Virus record (IMG/VR): IMGVR_UViG_3300028031_000003
Location: 1-37,564 of that record
Source: a virus
DNA: 37,564 nt
Reading direction: 5' to 3' (one strand)
This document shows, one piece after another, positions 128-32,918 of this stretch. A program made the position numbers and the translations under genes. The notes below the pieces were generated by a model. It saw only the letters and a list, made by a program, of their open reading frames with translations, was not told the origin of the DNA and did no database searches. Position 1 is the first letter of the stretch; every line of letters begins with the position of its first letter.

Positions 128-202
128 GCACCTGCTGGAATGATAAGAGTAACCATTCTTGAATGGAAAAGATTGGTCGAAAGAAAGGCTAAGCAGCTAT
201 GA
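1..202 (+). CDS. C-terminal part of the same HK97 gp10-like protein (frame 2, stop TGA 200..202)
   Basis: Translation is ...SANKSISNAVIETGKAKLTDVIYMVNNLPYAAEIERGSSKQAPAGMIRVTILEWKRLVERKAKQL*. The RLRGNW and N-x-PYA-x-IE-x-G patterns are typical of the HK97 gp10 family. The stop overlaps the next ATG (ATGA). Confidence 0.75.
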   Translation, partial: RSANKSISNAVIETGKAKLTDVIYMVNNLPYAAEIERGSSKQAPAGMIRVTILEWKRLVERKAKQL

Positions 203-1853: not shown

Positions 1854-3663
1854 TTTAGCCACCTTAGGCATAAAAATTGAAGCTTCTGATATAAAAAGAG
1901 CGATAAAGCAGCTTGATAAGCTTGAAAAAGAAGGCGCTAAGGCAGAGAGGTCTACTAAAAAACTTACCTCATCATTTAATTCTATGGGCACTGCAATAAC
2001 GGCTTTAGCTACTTCGTTATTGGTCAGAAGGTTAATTGGCACGGCAGCCGCTTTCGAGACCATGAAAGTTAGCTTAGAAACTGTCACTGGTAGTGCGGAA
2101 AAAGCGCAGATTGCGATGGACGGAATTAAACTTCTCGCTCAAAGCACCCCATTTTCAGTTCAAGAGCTAACCCAGTCATTCATCAAGCTAAAAGGCTTGG
2201 GTATAGCCCCTACAGAGTCATCTATGATAAGCTTTGGAAATACTTCATCTGCTATGGGTAAATCATTGAATGATATGATAGAGGCTGTTGCTGATGCTTC
2301 CACAAGTGAATTTGAGAGGCTGAAAGAGTTTGGCATTATAGCCAGAAAGCAGGGCGATCAAGTTAAGTTTACATTTCAAGGTGTTACCACGACAGTAAAA
2401 AACTCATCTAAAGACATAGTTGATTTTCTCGAGAACATAGGAAATACGAAGTTTGCGGGCGCCACGAAAAAACAAATGGATACAGTGGCCGGGTCATTCT
2501 CAAATGCTGGCGATGCTGTGGACAACTTAATAGATAAGTTGGGTGAGGGTGGCTTAAATACTGTTGTCAAAGAGCTTAATCTTGGATTTGCCAATCTAAT
2601 AAATAATATTTCAGAAGCATTTGACGATGATGCAAGCGTTAGAATTTTAGAAAAGCAAATAGACAACATAACCGAGAAAATTTTTAGACTTCAATCGGGC
2701 ATACAAGACCAGCAAGACAATAATTTTTTTGAAGATATATTTCTAGGCACTGAAAAAGGTGCATTGAATCAAATAAAATTATTTCAAGATCAGTTGGATG
2801 TTTTAACGGTTAAATTAGCTGCTGCTAAAAAAGCGACCGTTGCCGATCAGATAACGCAAGCCGGGGCTGATGGTAATGCAGGAAAAGCGCAAGAAAAGAT
2901 AGCTGCTAGACTAATAGAAGAGCAGTTAATAGCTGATGCAGTGGCTCAGCTTGGGTTGGCTAATCTAGCAGAATTCGAGGCAGAAAAGCTCGAAGCTCAG
3001 GCCGTAGCTGATGCGTTGGCGCTTAATGCTACAATAGATCAAGAGCAGTTAAAAATGGACGCGCTTGCATCAATGAGAGAGCAGGAGGCGCTTGCCACTT
3101 CGTTGGCTAGGCTTAATGAAGAGCAGCGAGAGCGTATACACCAAAGAGCAATGAAATCTATAATTATGGACTCGCTTGGAAATTTGTCATCTTTGATGAA
3201 TGCTCAAAGCAAAAAGTTATTTAATATAGGTAAAATAGCATCCTTATCCACGGCTGTGATAAAGGGGTATGAGTCAATAGTTAGTTCTTATGCTGCCGGT
3301 GCAAAAATTGGCGGCCCCCCCGTAGGCGCGGCTTTTGCTGCTACTGCTGGATTGGCTACGGCTGTTCAGATTCAGAACATTAGAAGCCAATCATTTGGCG
3401 GTGGCGGCAGTGTGTCAGCGCCTAGTGGCGGGGGTGGTGTCTCTGGAATATCCCCTCAAACGCCGACTGTGGCGCCTGCTTTAGGCTCTCAATCACAGCA
3501 ATTTGGTGGCTCATTTGTGGTAAATGTAAACGGCGGATTGGTCAATGAAGATTTCTTAATTGACGATTTATTACCAGCCATGAGAAATGCCATAGAGCAA
3601 AGAGATTTTACGCTAATAAGAAATACCTCGACAAACGGCCAAAATTTGAGAGAAGACATATAA
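1843..3663 (+). CDS. Tail tape measure protein
   Basis: 606 aa, with the TMP core-like segment FSVQELTQSFIKLKGLGIAPTESSMISFGNTSSAMGKSLNDMIEAVADASTSEFERLKEFGI, a long Ala/Gln/Glu coiled coil and a glycine-rich C-terminus. Confidence 0.9.
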   Translation: MPTDLATLGIKIEASDIKRAIKQLDKLEKEGAKAERSTKKLTSSFNSMGTAITALATSLLVRRLIGTAAAFETMKVSLETVTGSAEKAQIAMDGIKLLAQSTPFSVQELTQSFIKLKGLGIAPTESSMISFGNTSSAMGKSLNDMIEAVADASTSEFERLKEFGIIARKQGDQVKFTFQGVTTTVKNSSKDIVDFLENIGNTKFAGATKKQMDTVAGSFSNAGDAVDNLIDKLGEGGLNTVVKELNLGFANLINNISEAFDDDASVRILEKQIDNITEKIFRLQSGIQDQQDNNFFEDIFLGTEKGALNQIKLFQDQLDVLTVKLAAAKKATVADQITQAGADGNAGKAQEKIAARLIEEQLIADAVAQLGLANLAEFEAEKLEAQAVADALALNATIDQEQLKMDALASMREQEALATSLARLNEEQRERIHQRAMKSIIMDSLGNLSSLMNAQSKKLFNIGKIASLSTAVIKGYESIVSSYAAGAKIGGPPVGAAFAATAGLATAVQIQNIRSQSFGGGGSVSAPSGGGGVSGISPQTPTVAPALGSQSQQFGGSFVVNVNGGLVNEDFLIDDLLPAMRNAIEQRDFTLIRNTSTNGQNLREDI

Positions 3664-4691
3664 TGACTAGTGTTACATATACGGCAAAAAAAGGATTGAA
3701 GCTTTTTGGAAATGAGGTGGGTTCATTTCTTAATAATTCAAAGACATCTGATATAAGTGTGACTGAAAATAATTTGACAGAATTCGGGACAGTTTTAGAA
3801 TCGGCAGTTGATCAAGGCTCCGCTGTCTTTGGTTACAGTGGATTTAGTTCTGTTAACTATTTGAGCCAAGGGATTGAAAGCGCATTTGATTTTGGGTCTG
3901 GTGATTTTTCCATCTGTTGCTGGGTTAAATTTGGCTCTTCGACGACAGGAACTATATTTGATAGGTCTAATGGAGCGGATGATGCAAATAGAATAAATTT
4001 TTATATTCAAGGAACGACTCAAATTTTGCACCTCATTATTAATGGAACAGACGTTAGCAACGTTGGGTTTATTCCATTAAATGAATGGACATTTATTTGT
4101 GTAAAAAGAGAAAGCTCAATAATATCAGCCTATATAAATTCTAATATAGTTAACACGGTGGCATCAGCTTCCAGTGTATCTGGTTCTTTTTCTTCAAGAA
4201 TCGGATTAAATTTGCTAGGTTTGTCTGAATTTAATGGAAGTTTGTCAAATATAGAAATATTGCCAACAACTTTAAGTGACTCACAAATAAAGGAAAAATA
4301 TGATTCAGAAAGAGAAATGTTTAAGAAAAATTCTGTTTTCACTATATCAGGTGATGAATATAGTTTGGATATAGGTATAGATAAAGACGAAAGGACAGAG
4401 CTAGTTAAATCAAAGGCTCCTGTGTCTATTGGCGGAAGTCAAGAAACCGTATTGCAACGTGTCGATGTTTTTCATGAGATAAACATAAATAATGTGCCTA
4501 AAAATAGTTTGCCAATATATAGAAATTGGCTTCAATCTGTTAACTCTGGTGAGGTATTCACGATTGATATGGATGGTACTATAGCTTTGCCAGAAGACCC
4601 CGTATCAGTTATTTCAGATGGCGGGCATTCTGAGAATAGAGTGGGTACGCTTGATCTGTATAACATACCTGTTAAGCTGCGCGAAATATGA
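3663..4691 (+). CDS. Tail protein with an N-terminal LamG/concanavalin-like lectin domain (in the distal-tail-protein position)
   Basis: The segment GDFSICCWVKFGSSTTGTIFDRSNGADDANRINFYIQG...NEWTFICVKRESSIISAYINSNIV matches the Laminin_G_3 pattern. The gene lies immediately after the TMP (ATGA-type coupling). Confidence 0.6.
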   Translation: MTSVTYTAKKGLKLFGNEVGSFLNNSKTSDISVTENNLTEFGTVLESAVDQGSAVFGYSGFSSVNYLSQGIESAFDFGSGDFSICCWVKFGSSTTGTIFDRSNGADDANRINFYIQGTTQILHLIINGTDVSNVGFIPLNEWTFICVKRESSIISAYINSNIVNTVASASSVSGSFSSRIGLNLLGLSEFNGSLSNIEILPTTLSDSQIKEKYDSEREMFKKNSVFTISGDEYSLDIGIDKDERTELVKSKAPVSIGGSQETVLQRVDVFHEININNVPKNSLPIYRNWLQSVNSGEVFTIDMDGTIALPEDPVSVISDGGHSENRVGTLDLYNIPVKLREI

Positions 4692-7600
4692 GAATTGATA
4701 CGCCAGAGTTTGACCTACAGAATACAGCAAAGACAAAGAAGCCGCTTTATTTAATAAGAGTTTTTTTTGACGTAAAAGAAACTGATTTTGTTGAATTTAC
4801 ATCGCACGAAATAACTGAGAACTCACCAGGCGCTACAGTTATAAGAAATGTGATTAAAAAAATATCTGGCACTTCTCAGAAGATAACAAATAATTCTTCC
4901 ACTATCGGCAGCTTTTCGTTTTCTTTGGTGGATAAGAATTATCAAGTATCAGAGTTGATTAGAGATAAATTAAATGCCGGAGACGGCCTTAGGCGCAAGA
5001 CAGTTCAAGTTTTCTTAGGGTACCCTGATTTACTTTGGTCTAGTTATATCAAAGTTGGTACTTTTTTGATCGACAGCACATCATCATTAGATGGTGTTGT
5101 TTCTTTTTCTTGCTCGGATATCCAGAGAATTATTCGTGAGGATGTTTTTAGCCCGGAAAAGTCTTTTTTGGCCAAAACAGTCACGGCCACTCAACTTCAT
5201 ATTCCTGTTTCAACCGCCGATCTTTCTAAGTTTCCTAAAATTTTTCACGATTCAAGTTATTCGTCAAAGCCCAATGAATTGGTTGGCTATATTTTAATTG
5301 AAGACGAGGTTATTGCTCATTCTGGGTTATTTACCCATTCAACGGATGGGCCAAGCTTTCAAGTTTTTCCAAACAGCCGAGGCGCACTTAATTCAAAAGC
5401 TGTCGAGCATGTTTTTAATTCCGGCAAGCCAACTAGCCGACAATTAAAAATAACTGAGCATATATTTATTGAGGGCGCTGCACCTAAGGTAGCTTATCAA
5501 TTATTGACTGGGCACGTTGCTGAAAACCTGATTTTGCAGTCGGAAGATTTTACAACGACTTGGGGCGTTACTGGTGGCTCTGTCGCATCAAATTCGGGAA
5601 CGGCTCCAAATGGATTAGCGACATCTGACCGGCTTACTGTCTCAGTGGCTAACTCAGCGCATTACTTTAATCAATCTGCTGTTATACAGGCCAGTAAGAG
5701 CTACTGTGCGTCTGCTTTCGTAAAGAATGACGGGCAGCAATATTGTTTCATTACTTTGTGGCAATCTAATACAAATTATGTCAGTGCCGTTTTTGACTTA
5801 ACAGCTAAGACATTATTATCTAATAATATTTCTACCGCTACAGCCGGGAAAATCGGGATAATCGATCACGGTGATTGGGCCAGAATATACATAGTCGGAA
5901 ACTTGGGTGTTTTTGCATCTGCTTCAATCATTGTCGGGTCTGCTGGAAGTGCTGAGCCGACTTATGTGAATGGCACACCTTCATTTACTGGTGTGCTGGG
6001 TGAAGATTTATTTATTTGGGGTGCTCAGCTCTCACAAACTAATTATTTTGTACCTTACGTTTCCACTATTGCATCTGCTCAGAAAAAAGAAGTATTGCCA
6101 GATAATTGGAATTTAGGCGTGTCACATAAATTAGTTAGGCTGGATGATTACACTAGGCTGGGTGATGATGTTTGGAATCAATTTACAGGCCAAGGGCGAC
6201 ATCTAAGATTTGAGGGGCACAAAAAAACAGACGGTAAGCGATTTATTGAAAATCAAATTATGTCAGTGCTGTCGGCTTTTATGATTGTATACAGCAATGG
6301 GCAGATAGGTCTAAAAAGACAAGAGCCTATACTTTCAGATTCTAGTTATGTGAAAGAATTGGACGATACGAATATAGTTAAATATGGGAGCCTTCAAAAC
6401 AGTATGTCTGATGTGGTTAATCAGATTTTTGTCGATTGGAACTTTGTTTTTCAAAAAGATGATTACACTAAAACAAATGCGTTGATTGATTTAGATTCAA
6501 TTTCTGTTCATCAAGACGCGCCAATAAAGGAAATAAAATTCAGAGGAGTTCACACAGGCTCTCATACTGACAGTGATTTGTTGAATTATTTTGATTCAAC
6601 AAGAGACAGGCACAGCGGGCCACCACTAAAACTCCCTTTAACCGTTTTGCCTTCGCTAAATGTTTTAGAAGTTGGCGATGTTGTAAACGTAAAAACTAAA
6701 AATATAAGAGATTACAGCGTGTTGGGCGATGTAGAGCTTAATAGACCATTTGAAGTGCAACAAACATCTATTGATTGGCTGACCGGGGATGTAAAGCTTC
6801 AATTATTTGGCTCAGAAAGAAAGGCTGGCACACTGTCTAGGTCTTCTCTATCATCAGTTTTAGATGATGCTTTTTATGATGTTGGCACAGATTTGGCCAG
6901 TCTATTAACAATTACGGCAGGAGTAATGACGGCAGATGGGAATCTTGCCGGCGGCGATTCTATGGCGGATGCTATTTATAGGTATGACGGAAATCTGACA
7001 ATTCAAAATGGCGTAACATTAACAATAAATAAAAATGTTGAGCTTAGAATAAAAGGTCACTTGACCATTGATGGTAAAATTGATGGTAAAGGGAAAGGCC
7101 TACAGGGCGGCCTCGGAGGGACTTTATTTACAAAAACGGGCACAACTTTGAATGATGTTTTTGATCCAGCTAATGGTTTTGATTTTGAAACAAATGAAAC
7201 GCCGGGTAACCCAGGCTATCTGGGTGATGTTAAGGCTCCCGGCTCAGAGCGTATGAGTAAATTTTCAAATCAGAACTGGTACAATGCTAATAAAAAAATT
7301 GATAGGCTGGGAATTTTAATAAGAGGGAACGCATCATCTATTAATTTTTTCTCTTTAAAAAACAACGGCTCAAACATAAATGGACTACCGCTTAGTTTGG
7401 TTGGAACTAGCGGCAGTGGAGCTGGAGGCTGCCCAGAAACTTTGCTGCCAGAGACCAGCTCTTCTGGATTTGTTTTAAATCATTTTGGTGGAAATGCTGG
7501 AAATAGTGGAGCCGGTCTTCTGATTATTTGTCGATCTATGTCTTTTGGTGTTGTCGGAGATATTGATTTATCGGGCGATGATGGCTCACCCGGTATAAGC

Positions 7601-8845
7601 AAAAATGTGAATGGAACTAACTTTTTATTCCATTCTGGCGGAGGGCCGGGTGGGCACAATGGTGGTTTAGCCGTTTTTTTAGACGGAAACTCTACACCGC
7701 CAGAAATATCTAGCAATTTCACCGCTAGAGTAGGAGACTCTCCTATACCGGCAGGCGTTATATTTGAAGGAAAATGGGGCGGCCCTGAATACAATTATCC
7801 TAGGTCATATCCTTTTCCCGGAAGGAGCGCGGTTAATTCAAGCTACGTTTTACAGTACATCCCTGAAAACGAGGAAATCGATGAAGAAATTGATGCGCCT
7901 CCCCCAGATGTTTTGGATTTTACTGCGGGCACATCTGGAGCCACGGTGGTTTTCCGTTGGGTAGAAATCGAAGATATACTTCTTGATGGTTACGAAATAA
8001 GGTTTTCGCCCGATACCGTAAATGATTGGGATGCAGCCACAACATTGACAGCGGCTGCAAAAGGCACCAGAATAACAGACACAGCCATTAATGATGGTGA
8101 TTGGCGTTTTTACATCAAGGCAAAGCGGACAAACGGTATATATTCGCAAAATGCAGCTACATTTGATGCAACGGTAAGTAGCCCATTTGATGTTATTGTT
8201 AGTAATCAAGAAAACCCGCTGTGGTCGGGTGCAAAGACTAATTTTGTTGTGCACCATACTGGCAAGCTTGTGCCTCAGTCTCAAGATTTAGCTATTGACT
8301 CTGGGTGGGATACGTTTGATCTAGCTGTCGTTAACCCGTCCGATACGTCAAGCTACGAATCATCAGAGTTAGATATATCATTTGATGATTTGGTGAGAGT
8401 TTGGGATGAAGTCACCGGGGCTTTACTGCCCGGGCAAACAGGTGTAACGACTACAACTAATTTTCTTGATTATAGGCTAGACGCTGGCTCCTATGATGGT
8501 TTTGAAGTTTGGGGAGTTGGAGAGGTCAATGCAAGATTTATAAAATTTAAAGTTACATTAGACAATACAAAAGGTCTATCTTATTTAGACTCACAAAAAA
8601 TAACGGCTGATGTAATTGAAAGAATTGAATCACTTGATTCGCAAACTGTTGGGGTAGGAGGTACGACAATTAATTTTGCTAGAGCTTACCACTCTCCTCC
8701 GCATGTGACCGCCACCGTAACAGGCGGAGGAGCGCTATTTATAACAGCTTCTAATGTAACGACTTCTAGTTTAAAACTAGATATTTACGACACTACTAAT
8801 ACATCAGTTGGCGGTACTGCTAGCTGGAAATCTAAGGGAGTATAG
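4688..8845 (+). CDS. Large tail tip / host-specificity protein (gpJ / GTA-gp15-like), multidomain
   Basis: 1385 aa. It has a mid jelly-roll-like segment (NLILQSEDFTTTWGVTGGSVASNSGTAPNGLATSDRLTV), a glycine-rich beta-helix-like region and an FN3-like segment (PPPDVLDFTAGTSGATVVFRWVEIEDILLDGYEIRFSP...WRFYIKAKRTNGIYS). Confidence 0.8.
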   Translation: MRIDTPEFDLQNTAKTKKPLYLIRVFFDVKETDFVEFTSHEITENSPGATVIRNVIKKISGTSQKITNNSSTIGSFSFSLVDKNYQVSELIRDKLNAGDGLRRKTVQVFLGYPDLLWSSYIKVGTFLIDSTSSLDGVVSFSCSDIQRIIREDVFSPEKSFLAKTVTATQLHIPVSTADLSKFPKIFHDSSYSSKPNELVGYILIEDEVIAHSGLFTHSTDGPSFQVFPNSRGALNSKAVEHVFNSGKPTSRQLKITEHIFIEGAAPKVAYQLLTGHVAENLILQSEDFTTTWGVTGGSVASNSGTAPNGLATSDRLTVSVANSAHYFNQSAVIQASKSYCASAFVKNDGQQYCFITLWQSNTNYVSAVFDLTAKTLLSNNISTATAGKIGIIDHGDWARIYIVGNLGVFASASIIVGSAGSAEPTYVNGTPSFTGVLGEDLFIWGAQLSQTNYFVPYVSTIASAQKKEVLPDNWNLGVSHKLVRLDDYTRLGDDVWNQFTGQGRHLRFEGHKKTDGKRFIENQIMSVLSAFMIVYSNGQIGLKRQEPILSDSSYVKELDDTNIVKYGSLQNSMSDVVNQIFVDWNFVFQKDDYTKTNALIDLDSISVHQDAPIKEIKFRGVHTGSHTDSDLLNYFDSTRDRHSGPPLKLPLTVLPSLNVLEVGDVVNVKTKNIRDYSVLGDVELNRPFEVQQTSIDWLTGDVKLQLFGSERKAGTLSRSSLSSVLDDAFYDVGTDLASLLTITAGVMTADGNLAGGDSMADAIYRYDGNLTIQNGVTLTINKNVELRIKGHLTIDGKIDGKGKGLQGGLGGTLFTKTGTTLNDVFDPANGFDFETNETPGNPGYLGDVKAPGSERMSKFSNQNWYNANKKIDRLGILIRGNASSINFFSLKNNGSNINGLPLSLVGTSGSGAGGCPETLLPETSSSGFVLNHFGGNAGNSGAGLLIICRSMSFGVVGDIDLSGDDGSPGISKNVNGTNFLFHSGGGPGGHNGGLAVFLDGNSTPPEISSNFTARVGDSPIPAGVIFEGKWGGPEYNYPRSYPFPGRSAVNSSYVLQYIPENEEIDEEIDAPPPDVLDFTAGTSGATVVFRWVEIEDILLDGYEIRFSPDTVNDWDAATTLTAAAKGTRITDTAINDGDWRFYIKAKRTNGIYSQNAATFDATVSSPFDVIVSNQENPLWSGAKTNFVVHHTGKLVPQSQDLAIDSGWDTFDLAVVNPSDTSSYESSELDISFDDLVRVWDEVTGALLPGQTGVTTTTNFLDYRLDAGSYDGFEVWGVGEVNARFIKFKVTLDNTKGLSYLDSQKITADVIERIESLDSQTVGVGGTTINFARAYHSPPHVTATVTGGGALFITASNVTTSSLKLDIYDTTNTSVGGTASWKSKGV

Positions 8846-17030: not shown

Positions 17031-17414
17031 TTAAGGGTTTTTCGCTTCACCATGATCTTTATGCCATAAATTATGACAACAAGAACAAAGCCATCTTACG
17101 TTTAACGGTTCAGCATAATCATCATGGTGAGCCTCTACTTTTTTTGCTCCGCACTTTTCACAAGGCTGTTTAGTTAATTTTCTTGTTGCATTTCTGGCCT
17201 TCATTTTTACTTTGTCATATCTTTTTTTTCTGTATTCTGCATATAAAGCTAATCTTTCTGGGGTTGATCTCCATTTTTTATAATGCTTTGCGAGTCGCTT
17301 TCTCTCGGCTGTCATGCATAACTTACACTGGCTTCTATACCCAGACTTTGAATATTTATCTTTATTGAATTCGGCAAACTCCTTTTTTTTTCCGCACCTT
17401 CCGCACTTCTTCAT
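17031..17414 (-). CDS. Free-standing HNH endonuclease with an N-terminal zinc ribbon
   Basis: N-terminus CGRCGKKKEFAEF...CKLC; C-terminus CEKCGAKKVEAHHDDYAEPLNVRWLCSCCHNLWH. Confidence 0.7.
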   Translation of the reverse strand: MKKCGRCGKKKEFAEFNKDKYSKSGYRSQCKLCMTAERKRLAKHYKKWRSTPERLALYAEYRKKRYDKVKMKARNATRKLTKQPCEKCGAKKVEAHHDDYAEPLNVRWLCSCCHNLWHKDHGEAKNP

Positions 17415-17492: not shown

Positions 17493-17912
17493 TCAAAATG
17501 GTATATCGTCCTCATAGCTATAATCTGTCGGTGCTGATTGATTCTGCGCCGGCTGCTTCTGGGTTTGTTGCTGTGATCTGCCGCCTAACAACTGCATTTC
17601 ATTAGCAATGATTTTAGTGGTATAACGATCATTGCCACTTTTGTCTTGCCATTTTTCTGTGCGCAGGCTACCTTCAATATATACCTGCTGACCTTTCTTC
17701 AGGTACTCACCGGCAATTTCACCCAAACGATTAAAGAAGGTAATGTTATGCCATTCGGTACGCTCTTGTTTTTCACCTGTTTTTTTGTCTTTCCAGCTCT
17801 CATTCGTTGCCACACTAATTGAGGTGACCGCGCCGCCAGAAGGCATATAACGGGTTTCAGGGTCTTTACCGCAAGTACCTACTAAAATTACTTTATTTAT
17901 GCCACGCGACAT
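17493..17912 (-). CDS. ssb: Single-stranded DNA-binding protein
   Basis: [88 protein letters not shown]..., a Q-rich linker, and the acidic tail DDIPF*. Confidence 0.97.
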
Positions 17913-17932: not shown

Positions 17933-18325
17933 TTATTTTTTAAATAAATATTTGTTTGAGAAACCATCGCCATCGCCATCGCCAAAGCCAAAGCCAAAGC
18001 CAAAGCCATCGCCAAAGCCAAAGCCAAAGCCAAAGCCATCGCCATCGCCAAAGCCATCGCCAGAGCCAAAGCCATCGCCAAAGCCATCGCCAAAGCCATA
18101 TCCATGGCCAAAGCCAAAGCCAAAGCCAAAGCCAAAGCTAATTAAATTAGCCGCCTTTTTGACATAAATTTTATGCTCGACTGAACATAACCTTAAGACG
18201 GCTGATACTGGCATGAGTGTTTTTTTAATATTTTTTTCTACCATCCAGTCAAAAACACCATCTTCGCAAGCTCCCGCCTCGATCACATCCATGGCGGTGA
18301 TGTGTGTTTTTACGCTAATATCCAT
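17933..18325 (-). CDS. Protein with a globular N-domain and a (GF/GD)n dipeptide-repeat C-terminal tail
   Basis: The N-domain is [31 protein letters not shown].... From about residue 64 the sequence is [57 protein letters not shown], encoded by the hexamer microsatellite. Confidence 0.6.
17964..18138. repeat. Hexanucleotide microsatellite (gccaaa / gccatc units, about 29 units)
   Basis: Directly visible as ccatcgccatcgccatcgccaaagccaaagccaaagcc.... All reading frames stay open across it. Confidence 0.95.
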
Positions 18326-18588
18326 TTTTCCTCAGCCTCTTTTTCAACCAGAAAAACTGCGGTTATTTTATGTATGACTGGAATGTCCGCTTTTGCTCCG
18401 ATCAGGCTTTGATCGTTTGGCCCGATACTGGCAAGCTCGCAAATGCCCTTTTTGGTTGCCCACTTTATAGCCATCTTTGCATCTTTAAGGCCTAAAGTTT
18501 CCTTTGTTAAATCTTCGTTTTTATCAATGTATCCGAAAAAAACGCCGCGATGTTCTGTCGTGAAAATTACTGCTATTAAATTACTCAT
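18310..18588 (-). CDS. Conserved phage protein of unknown function (RGVFFGY motif)
   Basis: 92 aa, reading ...TTEHRGVFFGYIDKNEDL...AKMAIKWATKKGICELASIGPN... Confidence 0.5.
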   Translation of the reverse strand: MSNLIAVIFTTEHRGVFFGYIDKNEDLTKETLGLKDAKMAIKWATKKGICELASIGPNDQSLIGAKADIPVIHKITAVFLVEKEAEEKWILA

Positions 18589-18591
18589 TTT

Positions 18592-18852
18592 TTATTCCCC
18601 TATAGAAATTTCTTTAAATTGAATATTTTTTCTACATTTTTGCAAAGTATATCCTCTTGCGGCAAAAAACCACAAAACTCTGTCAATAGTATAAACATGA
18701 CCATCTACCCAATTAGGTGTGTGTTCCTGTCCTTCGTTTCCTTCCTGCAAATGATGCATTAATTTAAAAAACTTTTTTTGTTCATGAAAATCACGTAAAA
18801 ATTCAGGCAAATAATCGCCGCTTTCCAAATAATTATTTAGCTCTTCATCCAT
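18592..18852 (-). CDS. Hypothetical protein
   Basis: 86 aa, reading ...LPEFLRDFHEQKKFFKLMHH...WFFAARGYTLQKCRK... Confidence 0.5.
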   Translation of the reverse strand: MDEELNNYLESGDYLPEFLRDFHEQKKFFKLMHHLQEGNEGQEHTPNWVDGHVYTIDRVLWFFAARGYTLQKCRKNIQFKEISIGE

Positions 18853-18855
18853 ATC

Positions 18856-19578
18856 TTATTTTCCTGATTTAATTGTTTTAATTATAGCTCTGCCTATAAT
18901 TTCAGGTATTTGTGGAACAACAGCATTGCCTAGCGCCTTAGTTCTGTCCACCCTGCTGGGTACCCCATCAGTTCCTCTAATAACGCGGGGTTTGGGTATG
19001 TCGGATCGCTTGGCCCATCCCTTAATGCTTCTGTAAGATGACTTCTGTAGTGCTCCCCCCCCCAATACCTGTTTAATGGAGTGCCCCTGTATTCTGAGGC
19101 GGTTGGTGTGGGCAACAATCCATACCCTGTCTCGTCGGTGATCTGCACCGACGGCACAAGCTGGAATAACAAACGATTGCGCGGTGTACCCTTCATTTTC
19201 CAAATCAAGGAGCACGTCGTCGAGTGCCATTTTGATGAAGCCAGCAACGTTTTCACCAATGACCCAAGAAGGCTCGATTTCGCGTATAAGCCGAAGCATA
19301 TCCGGCCAGAGGTGGCGGTCATCTTCTTTGCCTTTTTGCTTCCCGGCAACACTAAATGGCTGGCAAGGGAATCCTCCGCAAATAAGGTCAACTGTTCCTT
19401 TGAGTTTTGTGCCATCTAATTTTCTCACGTCTCTATAATTTGGCACATCAGGCCAGTGTTTTTTAATTATCGCAGATGGATAGTCTTCGATTTCGCAAAA
19501 TCCTACGGTTTGCATTCCGGCCCTGCCTAACCCAAGAGAAAAGCCACCAATACCGCTAAATAAATCTAATACTTTCAT
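18856..19578 (-). CDS. dcm: DNA (cytosine-5)-methyltransferase, short form
   Basis: Motif I LDLFSGIGGFSLG, motif IV GGFPCQPFSVAG, motif VI VIGENVAGF, motif VIII QSFVIPACAVGADHRRDRVWIVA and motif X ALGNAVVPQ are present. Only about 60 aa separate motifs VIII and X. Confidence 0.9.
   Translation of the reverse strand: MKVLDLFSGIGGFSLGLGRAGMQTVGFCEIEDYPSAIIKKHWPDVPNYRDVRKLDGTKLKGTVDLICGGFPCQPFSVAGKQKGKEDDRHLWPDMLRLIREIEPSWVIGENVAGFIKMALDDVLLDLENEGYTAQSFVIPACAVGADHRRDRVWIVAHTNRLRIQGHSIKQVLGGGALQKSSYRSIKGWAKRSDIPKPRVIRGTDGVPSRVDRTKALGNAVVPQIPEIIGRAIIKTIKSGK
18930..19415 (-). CDS. 161-codon ORF embedded in the +1 frame of dcm (possible overprinted gene or alternative-frame TRD segment)
   Basis: The translation contains EDSLASHLVLPGSKKAKKMTATSGR, GLLPTPTASEY and NPALLEELMGYPAGWTEL. 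These resemble segments seen in large phage C5-MTases or MTase-associated proteins. Coding status is unproven. Confidence 0.3.
   Translation of the reverse strand: MAQNSKEQLTLFAEDSLASHLVLPGSKKAKKMTATSGRICFGLYAKSSLLGSLVKTLLASSKWHSTTCSLIWKMKGTPRNRLLFQLVPSVQITDETGYGLLPTPTASEYRGTPLNRYWGGEHYRSHLTEALRDGPSDPTYPNPALLEELMGYPAGWTELRR
19055..19063. repeat. C9 (G9 on the coding strand) homopolymer inside the dcm / embedded-ORF overlap
   Basis: The plus strand reads tgctCCCCCCCCCaatacc, the longest G/C homopolymer I noticed in the window. Confidence 0.95.
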
Positions 19579-19590
19579 CAACTTAACCTG

Positions 19591-20013
19591 TTATTTTTTT
19601 TTCATGCTATTTAAGTTTTCGTTATGAATTCTTTCGCCAATTTTAAATATTTTATCTTCCGAGACCGACATTTTTCTTGATGAATTCATTAGTTTATTCA
19701 CTAAATAAAAATTTAAGCATTCATCAAGTGCCTGATTTTTTAGACTGTCATCATTTTCTTGTTTTTTTACATCAGGTAACTGATTATAAAAAGCAGAAAA
19801 TAAAAACATTTTTCCTTTTCTCGTGATATATTTATTTGCATCAATTAATTTGAGATGCTTCATTATGAGAGTCAAGGTTCCACCACTTTTATACCCAGCT
19901 TGAGATTTTAAAACACCTTGTTCAAGCAACTTTCTATGATCTCTGGAGCCAAAATTCGAGTCGTCAAAAGCCTTTTTAATTTGTTCATCTAAAACATTTG
20001 TTTTTATACTCAT
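19591..20013 (-). CDS. Hypothetical protein
   Basis: 140-aa ORF. Confidence 0.5.
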   Translation of the reverse strand: MSIKTNVLDEQIKKAFDDSNFGSRDHRKLLEQGVLKSQAGYKSGGTLTLIMKHLKLIDANKYITRKGKMFLFSAFYNQLPDVKKQENDDSLKNQALDECLNFYLVNKLMNSSRKMSVSEDKIFKIGERIHNENLNSMKKK

Positions 20014-29758: not shown

Positions 29759-30196
29759 ATGGCAGCCGGAGCGCCGACAAAATATAAACAAGAGTTTGCT
29801 GAACAAGCTCAGAAATTGTGCGAATTGGGAGCAACTGATATGCAGCTCGCCGATTTTTTTAAAGTGGTAATATCCACTATATATCTTTGGAAGATAACAC
29901 ATCAAGAATTTTCAGACGCCCTAAAACTTGGCAAAGAAAAGCCTAATAATAACGTTGTGAGGTCGCTTTATAACAGAGCAATGGGTTATTCGCATGAAGA
30001 TGTGGATATAAGGGTAATAGATAACCAAATTATTAAAACGCCAATAATAAAGCATTACCCTCCTGATTCAACATCAATAATATTTTTCTTAAAAAATAGG
30101 CTGCCAGAAGAATTTAGGCAAAATCCTAACGCTGAAACAGGTGATAATGACCTAGCGGAGGCGCTTCTACTACTGGCTAAGCAGCTACCAAAGTGA
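29759..30196 (+). CDS. terS: Terminase small subunit
   Basis: GAPTKYKQEFAEQAQKLCELGATDMQLADFF...IYLWKITHQEFSDALKLGKE...VVRSLYNRAMGY...PPDSTSIIFFLKNRLPEEFR is the typical HTH-type small terminase pattern. Confidence 0.8.
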   Translation: MAAGAPTKYKQEFAEQAQKLCELGATDMQLADFFKVVISTIYLWKITHQEFSDALKLGKEKPNNNVVRSLYNRAMGYSHEDVDIRVIDNQIIKTPIIKHYPPDSTSIIFFLKNRLPEEFRQNPNAETGDNDLAEALLLLAKQLPK

Positions 30197-31509
30197 ATCC
30201 TAAGCTTAAGCGCGAAGTTGAGCGATGGTACCCGCTCAAGCCTCACAAAGTTCAACTAGAGTTAGTCGATGCTATAAAAAATGGTGTTAGATTTCCTCTA
30301 GTTCCCGCTGGCCGCCGGTCTGGAAAGACTGAGCGATTTAAGCGATTTCTCTCAAAGGAGGCCATTGAAAATCAAAACGAAATATACTTTGCCGGGGCAC
30401 CAACATATGCGCAAGCTAAAAAGATATTCTGGAACGACCTAAAGTTATTAACTTTCAGCTCGACTCACATTAAAAAACCATCCGAATCTGAACTAATTAT
30501 ATTTATCCCAAACGGGACGCAAATCCATGTGCTTGGGCTTGATAAGCCCGAGAGAATAGAAGGTGTTAACTGGACTGGCGGTGGAATTGATGAAATTGCC
30601 GATATAAAATCAAAAGCTGTAAATGAAAACATTCTGCCGGCCCTAGACACAGAAGACCCAACAAGGCCGGGTAAATTGGCATGGTGCTGGTTTTTGGGGG
30701 TGCCTGACGGATTGAACCATTATTATGATATGTGTTGCAAAGCTGACTCCGGCGTCTCCCCGGATAGCAAAGTTTTCCACTGGAAATCTTCGGAAATTCT
30801 ATCGAAGGAAGTCATCGATGCTGCTAAAGCTAGGTTGAGTACACGTCAATATTTGCAAGAATACGAGGCTAGCTTTGAGACTGCCTCGGGCAGGATTTAC
30901 GAGGATTATTCAAAGGGCAACCATACTGATAGGAAAATACAGCCGCATGAGCGGCTAATTTGGATGCATGACCAGAATTACACACCTCTGAGCAGCGCTA
31001 TAGGCTTGATAGAAGGTGATAATATTTACCTTCTTGATGAGATAGTGCTCACATCAGCAATCAGCAAGCAATCAGCAATGGAATTTGTTAATCGCTATGA
31101 AGATCATGAAAACAAAAATGTAATCATATACGGTGACCCAGCCGGTAGTGCCGGTGAAAAACATGCTCATGCGTCTGATTATACGGACATTGAGGACGTG
31201 CTTAGAAGTAATGGCTGGGAATTTACTAGAAAGGTCAAGAAAAAGCATCCAGCTATAAAAGATCGTCAAAATTCAGTTAGAGCAAAAATAAAGACGGCAG
31301 ACGGAAATATCAGTCTGTTCGTTAATCCGGTTTTAGCTAGCTGGTGCGACAAGGGTCTATCAACCGTAGAATTACAAGAAGGCTCCACCTTCCAAGAAGA
31401 CCAAAAAAACCAATATCAGCACATTACCACGGCTATTGGCTATATGGTAGACTACGAATTTCCAAGTCAAGAAATTAAAGTTAAGCTTAACGTTAAATTT
31501 GCGAGATAA
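30193..31509 (+). CDS. terL: Terminase large subunit
   Basis: 438 aa with the Walker A-like PAGRRSGKTE. The GTG start overlaps the terS stop (GTGA), and the portal gene is downstream. Confidence 0.85.
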   Translation: MNPKLKREVERWYPLKPHKVQLELVDAIKNGVRFPLVPAGRRSGKTERFKRFLSKEAIENQNEIYFAGAPTYAQAKKIFWNDLKLLTFSSTHIKKPSESELIIFIPNGTQIHVLGLDKPERIEGVNWTGGGIDEIADIKSKAVNENILPALDTEDPTRPGKLAWCWFLGVPDGLNHYYDMCCKADSGVSPDSKVFHWKSSEILSKEVIDAAKARLSTRQYLQEYEASFETASGRIYEDYSKGNHTDRKIQPHERLIWMHDQNYTPLSSAIGLIEGDNIYLLDEIVLTSAISKQSAMEFVNRYEDHENKNVIIYGDPAGSAGEKHAHASDYTDIEDVLRSNGWEFTRKVKKKHPAIKDRQNSVRAKIKTADGNISLFVNPVLASWCDKGLSTVELQEGSTFQEDQKNQYQHITTAIGYMVDYEFPSQEIKVKLNVKFAR

Positions 31510-31511
31510 TC

Positions 31512-32918
31512 ATGGCCGTAAGCACATTACATTCAAAGTATTCTGAAAACATAGCTAAAATTCGCACGGTCAGAGACTGTGTTGAAGGGTCAAGAAAGAT
31601 AAAGCAAGGCAAAGAGCTGTACCTTCCAAAGCCTAACCCTGATGATGTTTCGGAAGAAAATAGAAATCGATATATCGACTATATTACTCGAGCAAATTTT
31701 ATAAATTTCACTGGCCATACCCTAGAGGGGTTGCTTGGTATGGTTTTCAGAAAAGACCCAGAAATTAAGCTGCCATCATCTATCGAATATTTAATTGATA
31801 ATGCGGATGGAAACGGACTAAGTCTTAAGCAGGTTGGCCAGTCGGTAGTTAGCGAGATTGCACAGGCTGGCAGACACGGTCTTCTGACTGATTACCCGCA
31901 AGCTGAAAGCGGCTTAACGAAATCAGAAGTAACAAATCTTGGTTTGTTGGCCACTATAAAATCATACAAGGCTGAGTCAATAATAAATTGGAGGACAATA
32001 ACCAGAGGCTCTACAACTATGCTGTCTCTGGTTGTGCTGCTTGAGCCAACGGAAGTTATCAAGGATAGTGACAATGAAGTTTCCTTCGATATAGATGTAG
32101 TTGACTACTATCGTGTGCTGTACATTGACAAAGGAGTTTACAAACAAAGGCTTTATGATAACAATGAAAAACTTATTCAAGATGAAATAATCCCAAATAA
32201 TGAAAGAGGCGAGCCTTGGAATTTAATTCCCTTCGTTTTTGTTGGCTCAGAAGAAAATGATGTAAATATAGATAAAATTCCAATTTACGACATAGCAGAA
32301 ATAAATATATCACACTACCGAAACAGCGCTGACTTTGAAGAAAGTTCATATCAAATAGGACAGCCAACGCCCGTATTGTCAGGTCTAAATCAAAACTGGG
32401 TTGACGAAAATATGAAAGGCGGCGTAATGCTTGGCTCAAGATCGGCAATTCTGTTGCCAGAGGGCGGTGGCTCGTCTTTATTGCAAGCAAATCCTAATCA
32501 AATGCCGGAGCGAGGGATGGAAATGAAAGAGGCCCAAATGGTGATGATTGGTGCCCGCATAATTCAAGACATGGGCGGAAATGAGACGGTTGATGCTGCC
32601 AGTATGCGAAATGCCGGGCAAAACTCAAAGTTATCACTGATAGTCACAAATACAAGAAACGCGCTGATGCAATGCTTGGCATGGGCAACCGAATATATGG
32701 GCGGAGACCCTGAACAAATCGAGCTAGAGTTTAATAAGCAGTTTTATGATAAATCTATTGACCCGCAAGCCGTTATTGCTGACATCCAGCTATTAGACAG
32801 GGGTGTTATTGCTAAGAAAGATTTGCGTCGAAACTTGAGAAAGGCTGACAGAATAGCCGATGATAGAACAGACGAGGATATTGATTCGGAGGCACAGGCT
32901 TCTAGCCCTATAGAATAA
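31512..32918 (+). CDS. Portal protein
   Basis: 468 aa, between terL and the Mu-F-like gene. It has a DUF4055-like N-terminus (...VRDCVEGSRKIKQGKELYLPKPNP...NRYIDYITRANFINFTGHTLEGLLGMVFRK) and an acidic C-terminus. Confidence 0.8.
   Translation: MAVSTLHSKYSENIAKIRTVRDCVEGSRKIKQGKELYLPKPNPDDVSEENRNRYIDYITRANFINFTGHTLEGLLGMVFRKDPEIKLPSSIEYLIDNADGNGLSLKQVGQSVVSEIAQAGRHGLLTDYPQAESGLTKSEVTNLGLLATIKSYKAESIINWRTITRGSTTMLSLVVLLEPTEVIKDSDNEVSFDIDVVDYYRVLYIDKGVYKQRLYDNNEKLIQDEIIPNNERGEPWNLIPFVFVGSEENDVNIDKIPIYDIAEINISHYRNSADFEESSYQIGQPTPVLSGLNQNWVDENMKGGVMLGSRSAILLPEGGGSSLLQANPNQMPERGMEMKEAQMVMIGARIIQDMGGNETVDAASMRNAGQNSKLSLIVTNTRNALMQCLAWATEYMGGDPEQIELEFNKQFYDKSIDPQAVIADIQLLDRGVIAKKDLRRNLRKADRIADDRTDEDIDSEAQASSPIE

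Follow-up and report, generated by a model that had tools for sequence, protein, structure and literature searches.

A conserved +1 reading frame nested within a phage C5-cytosine methyltransferase gene probably encodes a second subunit of the enzyme

The small domain of C5-methyltransferases, which comprises the variable region and motif IX, makes all specific DNA contacts (PMC3404938). For M.EcoHK31I of Escherichia coli HK31 (YGGCCR; Lee, Kam and Shaw 1995), published accounts describe two associating chains, of which alpha carries motifs I-VIII, motif X and a predicted target-recognition domain and beta carries motif IX; removal of the beta start codons by changes that are silent in alpha abolishes methylation in vivo (PMC2836561, PMC3404938). 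Here, a comparable arrangement is described in a stretch of viral DNA of 37,564 nucleotides (IMG/VR virus record IMGVR_UViG_3300028031_000003, positions 1 to 37,564), termed the window, in which a C5-methyltransferase gene, A, encloses a second open reading frame (ORF), B, on the same strand. In the library searched, nothing on nested genes in phage C5-methyltransferases was found beyond M.EcoHK31I. Comparison with related loci shows both frames to be conserved and, as judged from their substitution patterns, under selection across hundreds of loci. By analogy with M.EcoHK31I, this single stretch of DNA probably encodes two polypeptides, with A as an alpha-like and B as a beta-like subunit.

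ORF A extends over 18856..19581 of the minus strand and, with ATG 19578 as its likely start, corresponds to a gene at 18856..19578 encoding 240 residues. ORF B, at 18930..19415 of the same strand, comprises 161 residues, is fully nested within ORF A and lies in its +1 frame. These limits were obtained from the ORF listing, from a reading of the minus strand over 18700-19750 and from translation of sub-ranges, and all features of the two genes given below are on that strand. B starts with an ATG at 19415, located 47 nucleotides upstream of the PCQ codons of A, and its translation-initiation context (19416..19440) displays a B-frame stop codon (tag) abutting the ATG with the purine-rich gagacgtgagaaaa upstream. 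The N-terminal domain of B (residues 1-99; 19119..19415), which includes the segment MTATSGR (19302..19322), overprints motifs IV-VIII of A. It is followed by an LLPTPTA unit (19098..19118), identified in the alignment, present as a single copy in the window and overlapping the RVWIVAH codons of A (19108..19128), and by the C-terminal motif IX-like segment NPALLEELMGYPAGWTEL (18939..18992), where conservation in the B family is highest. The B stop codon (18930..18932) falls inside the K-A-L-G codons that open motif X of A (ALGNAVVPQ, 18910..18936), and motif X begins where B ends. A homopolymer of nine G in the mRNA (C9 on the plus strand; 19055..19063) lies within both frames, 63 nucleotides upstream of the motif IX-like segment. 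The G+C content is 46.6% for the gene and 51.4% for the overlap against 32-39% for the flanks, and the dual-coding gene is richer in G+C than its flanks in 88% of 131 related loci (median difference of +4.6 points); the elevation is a property of the family. A previous sequence-only reading of the window had described the two frames and their nesting, the methyltransferase motifs of A, the G9 run and the G+C enrichment; these, and the coordinates that it stated, all hold on ORF listing, translation and composition analysis. Its assignment of the LLPTPTA and LMGYPAGW segments to frame B, with a motif order that alternates between A (I-VIII), B (IX-like) and A (X), is also borne out.

The nested arrangement was followed in three sets of loci, comprising 80 viral loci retrieved with a pattern of the B C-terminus, 80 viral loci retrieved only with the N-terminal 157 residues of A, and 80 loci from GTDB species-representative genomes. 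In all 240 related loci B is placed in the +1 frame of A. In every one of the B-selected viral loci (80/80) the tblastn match to A overlaps that to B, which lies in the +1 frame of A. The A-selected viral loci all display a long +1 ORF (80/80) where the +2 ORF spans just 2-89 codons; the complete +1 ORFs extend over 150-497 codons, with a few others cut by contig ends, they terminate between 146 nucleotides before and 16 nucleotides after the A stop, and 72 of the 80 loci match B at E<1e-5. Among the bacterial genome loci B is likewise +1 of A in 80/80 and is strictly nested in 73, and these loci span Bacillota, Pseudomonadota, Bacteroidota, Verrucomicrobiota, Desulfobacterota, candidate phyla and others. 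Existing annotation follows the arrangement in part. In Paenibacillus phage Lily, LILY_62 (dcm) contains LILY_63, which is annotated as "g62 internal gene" and whose B is 54% identical, and in phage Tadhana both frames (54/55) are annotated as cytosine methyltransferases; RefSeq plasmid and prophage records annotate the A frame only. The A/B pair is present in 2-5 copies per genome in a Roseovarius metagenome-assembled genome (MAG) (OX638333; L204, L206, L209, L211 and L212), in Lihuaxuella thermophila (L172-L174) and in a Caldisericales MAG (L179/L182), and the identical match statistics of these copies suggest several related prophages or a mobile element that is present more than once.

Codons were threaded on a MAFFT alignment of 131 A proteins, and third-position diversity was calculated at conserved 4-fold-degenerate codons of A. 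The values, which are not tree-corrected and derive from a sample partly chosen through B, are 0.707 before the overlap (A residues 1-55), 0.497 where the catalytic domain of A covers the N-terminal domain of B, 0.17 where the linker of A covers the C-terminal part of B, and 0.70 downstream of the B stop. Synonymous diversity drops in the overlap because individual third positions of A are frozen where residues of B need them. Ala141 of A is encoded by GCT in 131/131 sequences, its T being the middle base of the near-invariant Leu86 of B; Leu127 is xxG in 124/129, where the G is the middle base of the invariant Trp72 of B; and Leu91 is xxC in 113/120, where the C is the middle base of Ser36 of B. 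In the linker segment, codon position 1 of A, which is position 3 of B, is the most variable (0.496 vs 0.379 and 0.288), and B therefore sets the periodicity in this segment. A permutation null was constructed by shuffling synonymous codons within each A gene at 60 A-selected loci, with 200 shuffles each. The longest +1 open run at the 60 loci has a median of 251 codons observed against 92 shuffled, and at just one locus was the observed length ever reached by a shuffle; in the window, a +1 run of 161 codons compares with a shuffled mean of 50.5 and was reached in 0/200 shuffles. Across 131 loci, median open runs are 234 codons for the sense +1 frame, 48 for the +2 frame and 65-113 for the antisense frames. 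The sequence-only reading had listed a genuine overlapping gene among its explanations of ORF B. The homologues of B, its +1 placement throughout the loci and the suppressed synonymous variation of A strongly support that explanation, and the two patterns that it had proposed to look for in relatives, conservation of B and synonymous suppression in A, are both found.

Chain A is, on the evidence of its homologies, the large domain of a C5-cytosine methyltransferase with motifs I-VIII and X. The catalytic motifs I (FxGxG, in DLFSGIGG; 19543..19566), IV (PCQ, in GGFPCQ; 19360..19377), VI (ENV; 19246..19254) and VIII (RxR, in HRRDRVWIVA; 19111..19140) are all located in A by translation. Residues 2-165 align with positions 1-168 of the 324 of Pfam PF00145 (E 4.7e-46), TIGR00675 is matched above its cut-off of 100.65 (118 bits, E 6.8e-34) with only the first half of the profile aligned, and phrog_363 is matched with 277 bits (E 3.7e-82); in the PDB, M.HhaI is matched over its residues 13-181 (E 7.8e-22). 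A protein identical to A is already in public data (P0121). The AlphaFold model of A, computed with 86 homologues, presents a predicted template modelling score (pTM) of 0.73. Its predicted local distance difference test (pLDDT) values exceed 90 in the Rossmann-type large domain as well as in the helix that follows motif X, and fall below 50 for residues 163-189 and 195-217, where secondary structure is absent. A Foldseek search with this model retrieved M.HhaI (E 3.6e-14), M.HaeIII, DNMT1 and DNMT2, aligned over ~175 columns that correspond to the large domain only. Residues L216, G217, N218, V220 and P222 of motif X are invariant in the 86 A homologues. Motifs VIII and X are separated by ~58 residues, and the 55-residue linker (residues 163-217; 18928..19092), which is the A-frame reading of the C-terminal part of B, is predicted to be disordered. 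Every methyltransferase profile is aligned over its own first half only, with no target-recognition domain or motif IX found between VIII and X, in agreement with the view of the sequence-only reading that A has almost none of either. Because the profiles stop halfway and the linker is predicted to be disordered, the modelling shows A without a folded small domain, and such a chain would therefore need a partner.

Chain B belongs to a large family of its own. It matches phrog_1008 ("DNA methyltransferase") with E 4.9e-30, and 175 homologues were retrieved from a word-indexed protein collection (best E 2.4e-43). A profile built from 114 B proteins and searched against 1.84 billion representatives retrieved 44,878, 27,906 and 4,363 representative clusters at E<=1e-3, 1e-10 and 1e-30, respectively. 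B has no match in Pfam, NCBIfam, PADLOC or PDB, and its family profile retrieved nothing from the PDB sequences even at E 10. The window's own B ORF is missing from a 5.8-billion-protein collection in which A is present, the best match being 55% identical. The family comprises three parts. The first is the conserved N-terminal domain, with the pattern EQLTLF..DS.AS..LPGS..A.KMTATSGRKC...LGSL.KTLL.SS.W.ST.C.LTWK..TP..RLLFQLVPS and near-invariant residues S36, G37, W63, S65, L70, W72, R81, F84 and L86. The second consists of (L/W)PTPTA.D units, in 1 to >10 copies in relatives, and the third is the C-terminal LNPxxVEWLMG(F/Y)PxGWT(D/E)L, in which P143, M150, G151, P153 and W156 are conserved at >=90%. 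B has a start codon of its own. Across 131 non-redundant loci its ATG is mostly 32-56 nucleotides upstream of the PCQ codons (modes 47 and 50) and usually lies 0-5 codons after a B-frame stop, often with aGGAG 7-10 nucleotides upstream, and the initiation site in the window is no weaker than those of the neighbouring genes.

Several relatives depart from this layout in detail. In some relatives (loci L027, L035, L154 and L158; proteins P0271, P0272, P0313 and P0331) the B-frame ORF begins beside the A start, with an ATG ~212 nucleotides upstream of PCQ; these ORFs contain an extra WPTP unit and nearly the whole A gene is read in both frames. In P0024 (217 residues), motifs I-IV of A pass directly into B at ...GGYPCQP|LVSPGTEEARKMTATSGR, implying a one-base frame change just after PCQ in that contig, which may stem from mutation or from misassembly. 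Locus L050 (~3640-3700) displays a complete B followed by an extra IX-like/X module in shifted frames, and in L054 (~1156-1206) motifs IX and X are shifted by +1; neither contains a long G run. The B-type protein P0306 (660 residues), on which Pfam finds no match, contains many PTPTA units and MMGFPPDW, followed ~70 residues later in the same frame by KAYGNAICPQV. With an IX-like segment and motif X on one chain, it hints at a possible relic of a single-frame ancestor.

These features are best accommodated if A and B are the two subunits of one enzyme. Gene A would provide the catalytic large domain, in which an unstructured tether of 55 residues links motifs I-VIII to motif X. Gene B, from its own ATG in the +1 frame, would provide a clade-specific N-terminal domain, the LLPTPTA unit and the C-terminal NPxxxExLMG(F/Y)PxGWT segment. 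B would associate with A and contribute the small domain that A is missing, comprising motif IX and probably target recognition, and the active phage methylase would be an A-B heterodimer that shields phage DNA from host restriction. We only infer that A and B physically associate, that activity needs B, what the N-terminal domain of B does and that the G tract serves as a switch. The identity of the C-terminal segment with motif IX is unproven: it is suggested by the position just before motif X, by the analogy with M.EcoHK31I and by the resemblance of NPALLEELMGYPAGWTEL to HPRECARVMGYPDSY of M.HhaI. Some observations weigh against the two-subunit explanation. Profile and structure searches (Pfam, PDB) found no link between the B C-terminus and canonical methyltransferase motif IX, and within the B family a weak PF00145 match was obtained in just one of 114 members. 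In M.EcoHK31I the target-recognition domain is ascribed to alpha, whereas A of the window, with a disordered linker of 55 residues, has no room for one. Modelled alone, B folds poorly (AlphaFold pLDDT 65, pTM 0.24), being confident only for a hairpin at 69-89 and a helix at 143-150 (both ~85), yet this is expected of an obligate subunit that folds on its partner and says little.

A further proposal adds to the two-gene explanation rather than opposing it: the G9 tract could be a contingency locus, at which slippage between G8, G9 and G10 switches the methylase on and off or yields alternative chains. We regard this as a realistic possibility that falls short of an even chance. G9 is the only G/C homopolymer of at least 8 in the 37.5 kb window, where base composition predicts ~0.02 runs of at least 9. 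The related viral loci, 705 kb in total with ~1/5 taken up by this gene, contain 11 G/C runs of at least 9, and seven of them fall in this gene (L006, L027, L035, L037, L042, L058 and L062), all with G on the coding strand and within B. Four of these loci (L006, L037, L042 and L058), which share 70-80% mutual identity around the site, keep G9 or G10 at the same place. In L042 and L058, which are one G short, the A frame contains motif IX and the third frame motif X, and the addition of one G restores an A with X and a B with IX; a G8 tract in the isolate genome of Ligilactobacillus pabuli (L221) is shifted out of phase in the opposite sense. Over the seven loci and L221, these tracts, homologous or analogous to that of the window, range from G8 to G11. 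With a slip of one base in the G9 of the window, either A would acquire motif IX or B would acquire motif X, and the partner chain would be cut short. Simulated G8 gives a 216-residue A ending in motif IX and a 130-residue truncated B, and simulated G10 a 186-residue truncated A and a 186-residue B ending in motif X. Neither product set contains a chain with motifs I-VIII plus X, so the enzyme would most likely be off. Against a contingency locus, the tract is found in just ~5% of family members, the out-of-phase contigs could reflect homopolymer sequencing or assembly errors, and G9 is read in both public records of the window phage (ENA ERZ27262698 and Logan SRR8439430, which may share the same reads). 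The family-level evidence lends indirect support to phase-variable switching in some lineages; for the window phage it is plausible but unproven. Further long G/C homopolymers are located outside the methylase gene in L042 (2012, 2444 and 3523), L006 (838), L063 (1918) and L168 (3508, C17), and homopolymer-rich phages or assemblies may weaken the enrichment argument for those lineages. The window also contains T9 runs at 17383..17391 and at 19594..19602. The latter is A9 in the mRNA, in the last codons (..SMKKK*) of the ORF at 19591..20013, and forms another slippage-prone tract ~15 nucleotides before the A start.

The alternative in which B is a real overprinted protein with a role unrelated to completion of the methylase, such as regulation, anti-defence or a DNA-binding role of its own, is unlikely. 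It would be in keeping with the lack of relatives of the N-terminal domain and PTPTA repeats in Pfam, NCBIfam, PADLOC and PDB, with a repeat number that varies from 1 to >10, and with the fusion of some B proteins to long unrelated C-terminal regions (P0303, 869 residues). However, every B examined sits inside a single methyltransferase clade and always ends just before motif X, A without a small domain needs a partner, and M.EcoHK31I provides a precedent for the two-subunit explanation.

Far less probable, and rejected here, is a single polypeptide that passes from A to B and back to A, either through a pair of programmed frameshifts (+1 close to RVWIVA/LLPTP, -1 close to GWTEL/KALGN) or because two compensating indels or sequencing errors interrupt one frame. 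The alternation of motifs I-VIII, IX-like and X between the frames would fit such a chain, as the sequence-only reading had noted, and P0306, in which the IX-like segment and X share a frame, suggests a single-frame ancestor. The same two-frame layout is fixed in all 240 loci, and a sequencing error is therefore ruled out. The A-B-A chimera scores 256 bits on phrog_363, lower than the 277 of A by itself, and gains nothing over A in the PDB or on PF00145, where coverage stays at profile positions 1-165. The C-terminal pieces of the A and chimera readings retrieved nothing from the PDB, and the junction between A and B (gta tgg att gtt gcc cac) lacks a slippery heptamer. Moreover, over ~100 codons upstream of the presumed shift site B remains an open frame that is both conserved and constrained, a stretch that comprises its N-terminal domain, and it has its own ATG after a stop.

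A chance origin of ORF B, as an open frame in the shadow of A conservation within a segment richer in G+C than its flanks, where antisense ORFs of 112 residues (19081..19419, plus strand) and 84 residues (19184..19438, plus strand) are also open, had been raised by the sequence-only reading and is refuted, with negligible probability, by the permutation (0/200 shuffles in the window and one of 60 loci ever reached), by the much shorter +2 and antisense frames, by the synonymous sites of A frozen exactly opposite invariant B residues and by the tens of thousands of homologous B clusters. The two antisense ORFs were themselves dismissed as genes, since across the family antisense runs fall far short of the +1 frame; both seem to be by-products of a stop-poor, GC-rich dual-coding sequence.

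The window approximates a complete 37.5 kb tailed-phage-like contig and includes ORFs of 1,385 residues (4688..8845) and of 438 and 468 residues (30193..32918). The A/B gene lies in a phage replication/recombination module, its neighbours being SSB (17493..17912), an endonuclease VII/HNH-like protein, a NinB-like protein and unknowns; a DUF6948 protein is encoded at 18310..18588. No recognisable restriction enzyme was found near the A/B gene in the window. A megablast search of 18600-19800 against 50,697 phage records gave no match, nor did blastn of the A/B gene against 5,426 E. coli genomes.

At the level of the family, B could be, of all same-strand overlapping genes of prokaryotic viruses, one of the longest and most broadly conserved (450 to ~1,500 nucleotides of dual coding, tens of thousands of clusters, many phyla). 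One half of each frame would be ancestral and the other half overprinted, with the catalytic domain of A and the motif IX part of B as the old portions and the N-terminal domain of B and the linker of A as the new ones, and a poly-G phase switch would operate in some lineages; this combined proposal is tentative and, taken as a whole, rather doubtful. No published description of the family-wide dual coding or of the poly-G switch was found in the library searched, and any novelty may lie in how broad and strong the dual coding is across the family, together with the recurrence of poly-G in the overlap, rather than in the window alone. Standard annotation misses gene B, as RefSeq names only the dcm frame and B is without a Pfam, NCBIfam or PADLOC model. 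Should the recognition domain be provided by B, predictions of specificity or constructs for expression that are derived from A alone would fail. The A/B family also constitutes a very large natural and testable data set on the debated long out-of-frame overlapping genes of prokaryotes and their viruses, in which selection has left clear marks on both frames, and poly-G in a dual-coding methylase would offer a phage a compact means of varying the methylation of its DNA.

Among described systems M.EcoHK31I is the closest, a likeness drawn from the description of its layout and not from sequence. In both systems the smaller chain lies wholly within the larger gene, in another frame of the same strand, the N-terminal part of the smaller chain overlaps the catalytic region of the larger, and the large chain contains motifs I-VIII as well as X, with IX lacking. 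The two differ in context, M.EcoHK31I being a restriction-modification pair whereas the window gene belongs to a phage replication/recombination module. They also differ in size, with 309 residues in M.EcoHK31I alpha and 240 in A of the window, and in the smaller chain, where the first 42-67 residues of M.EcoHK31I beta are largely dispensable while the N-terminal domain of B is strongly conserved. M.AquI resembles A/B in being a C5-methyltransferase of two assembling chains, with small-domain elements on the second (PMC3404938). In M.AquI beta carries both IX and X, while here X remains on the large chain. The M.AquI subunits are encoded by adjacent genes, not nested ones. Phase-variable DNA methyltransferases resemble the window in containing a homopolymer within the coding region whose change in length shifts the frame (PMC12707154). 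Known phasevarions mostly involve host Type III or Type I genes read in a single frame, in contrast with the dual-coding phage C5-methyltransferase of the window, where a slip re-assorts motifs IX and X. The clear homologues of both chains, with the same nesting, in Lily (LILY_62/LILY_63), Tadhana (54/55) and PHROG (363/1008) are known only as annotation, and no study of their function or evolution was found. The A/B pair is thus a phage-borne member of the M.EcoHK31I kind, within a very large and poorly annotated family, and not a new kind of system.

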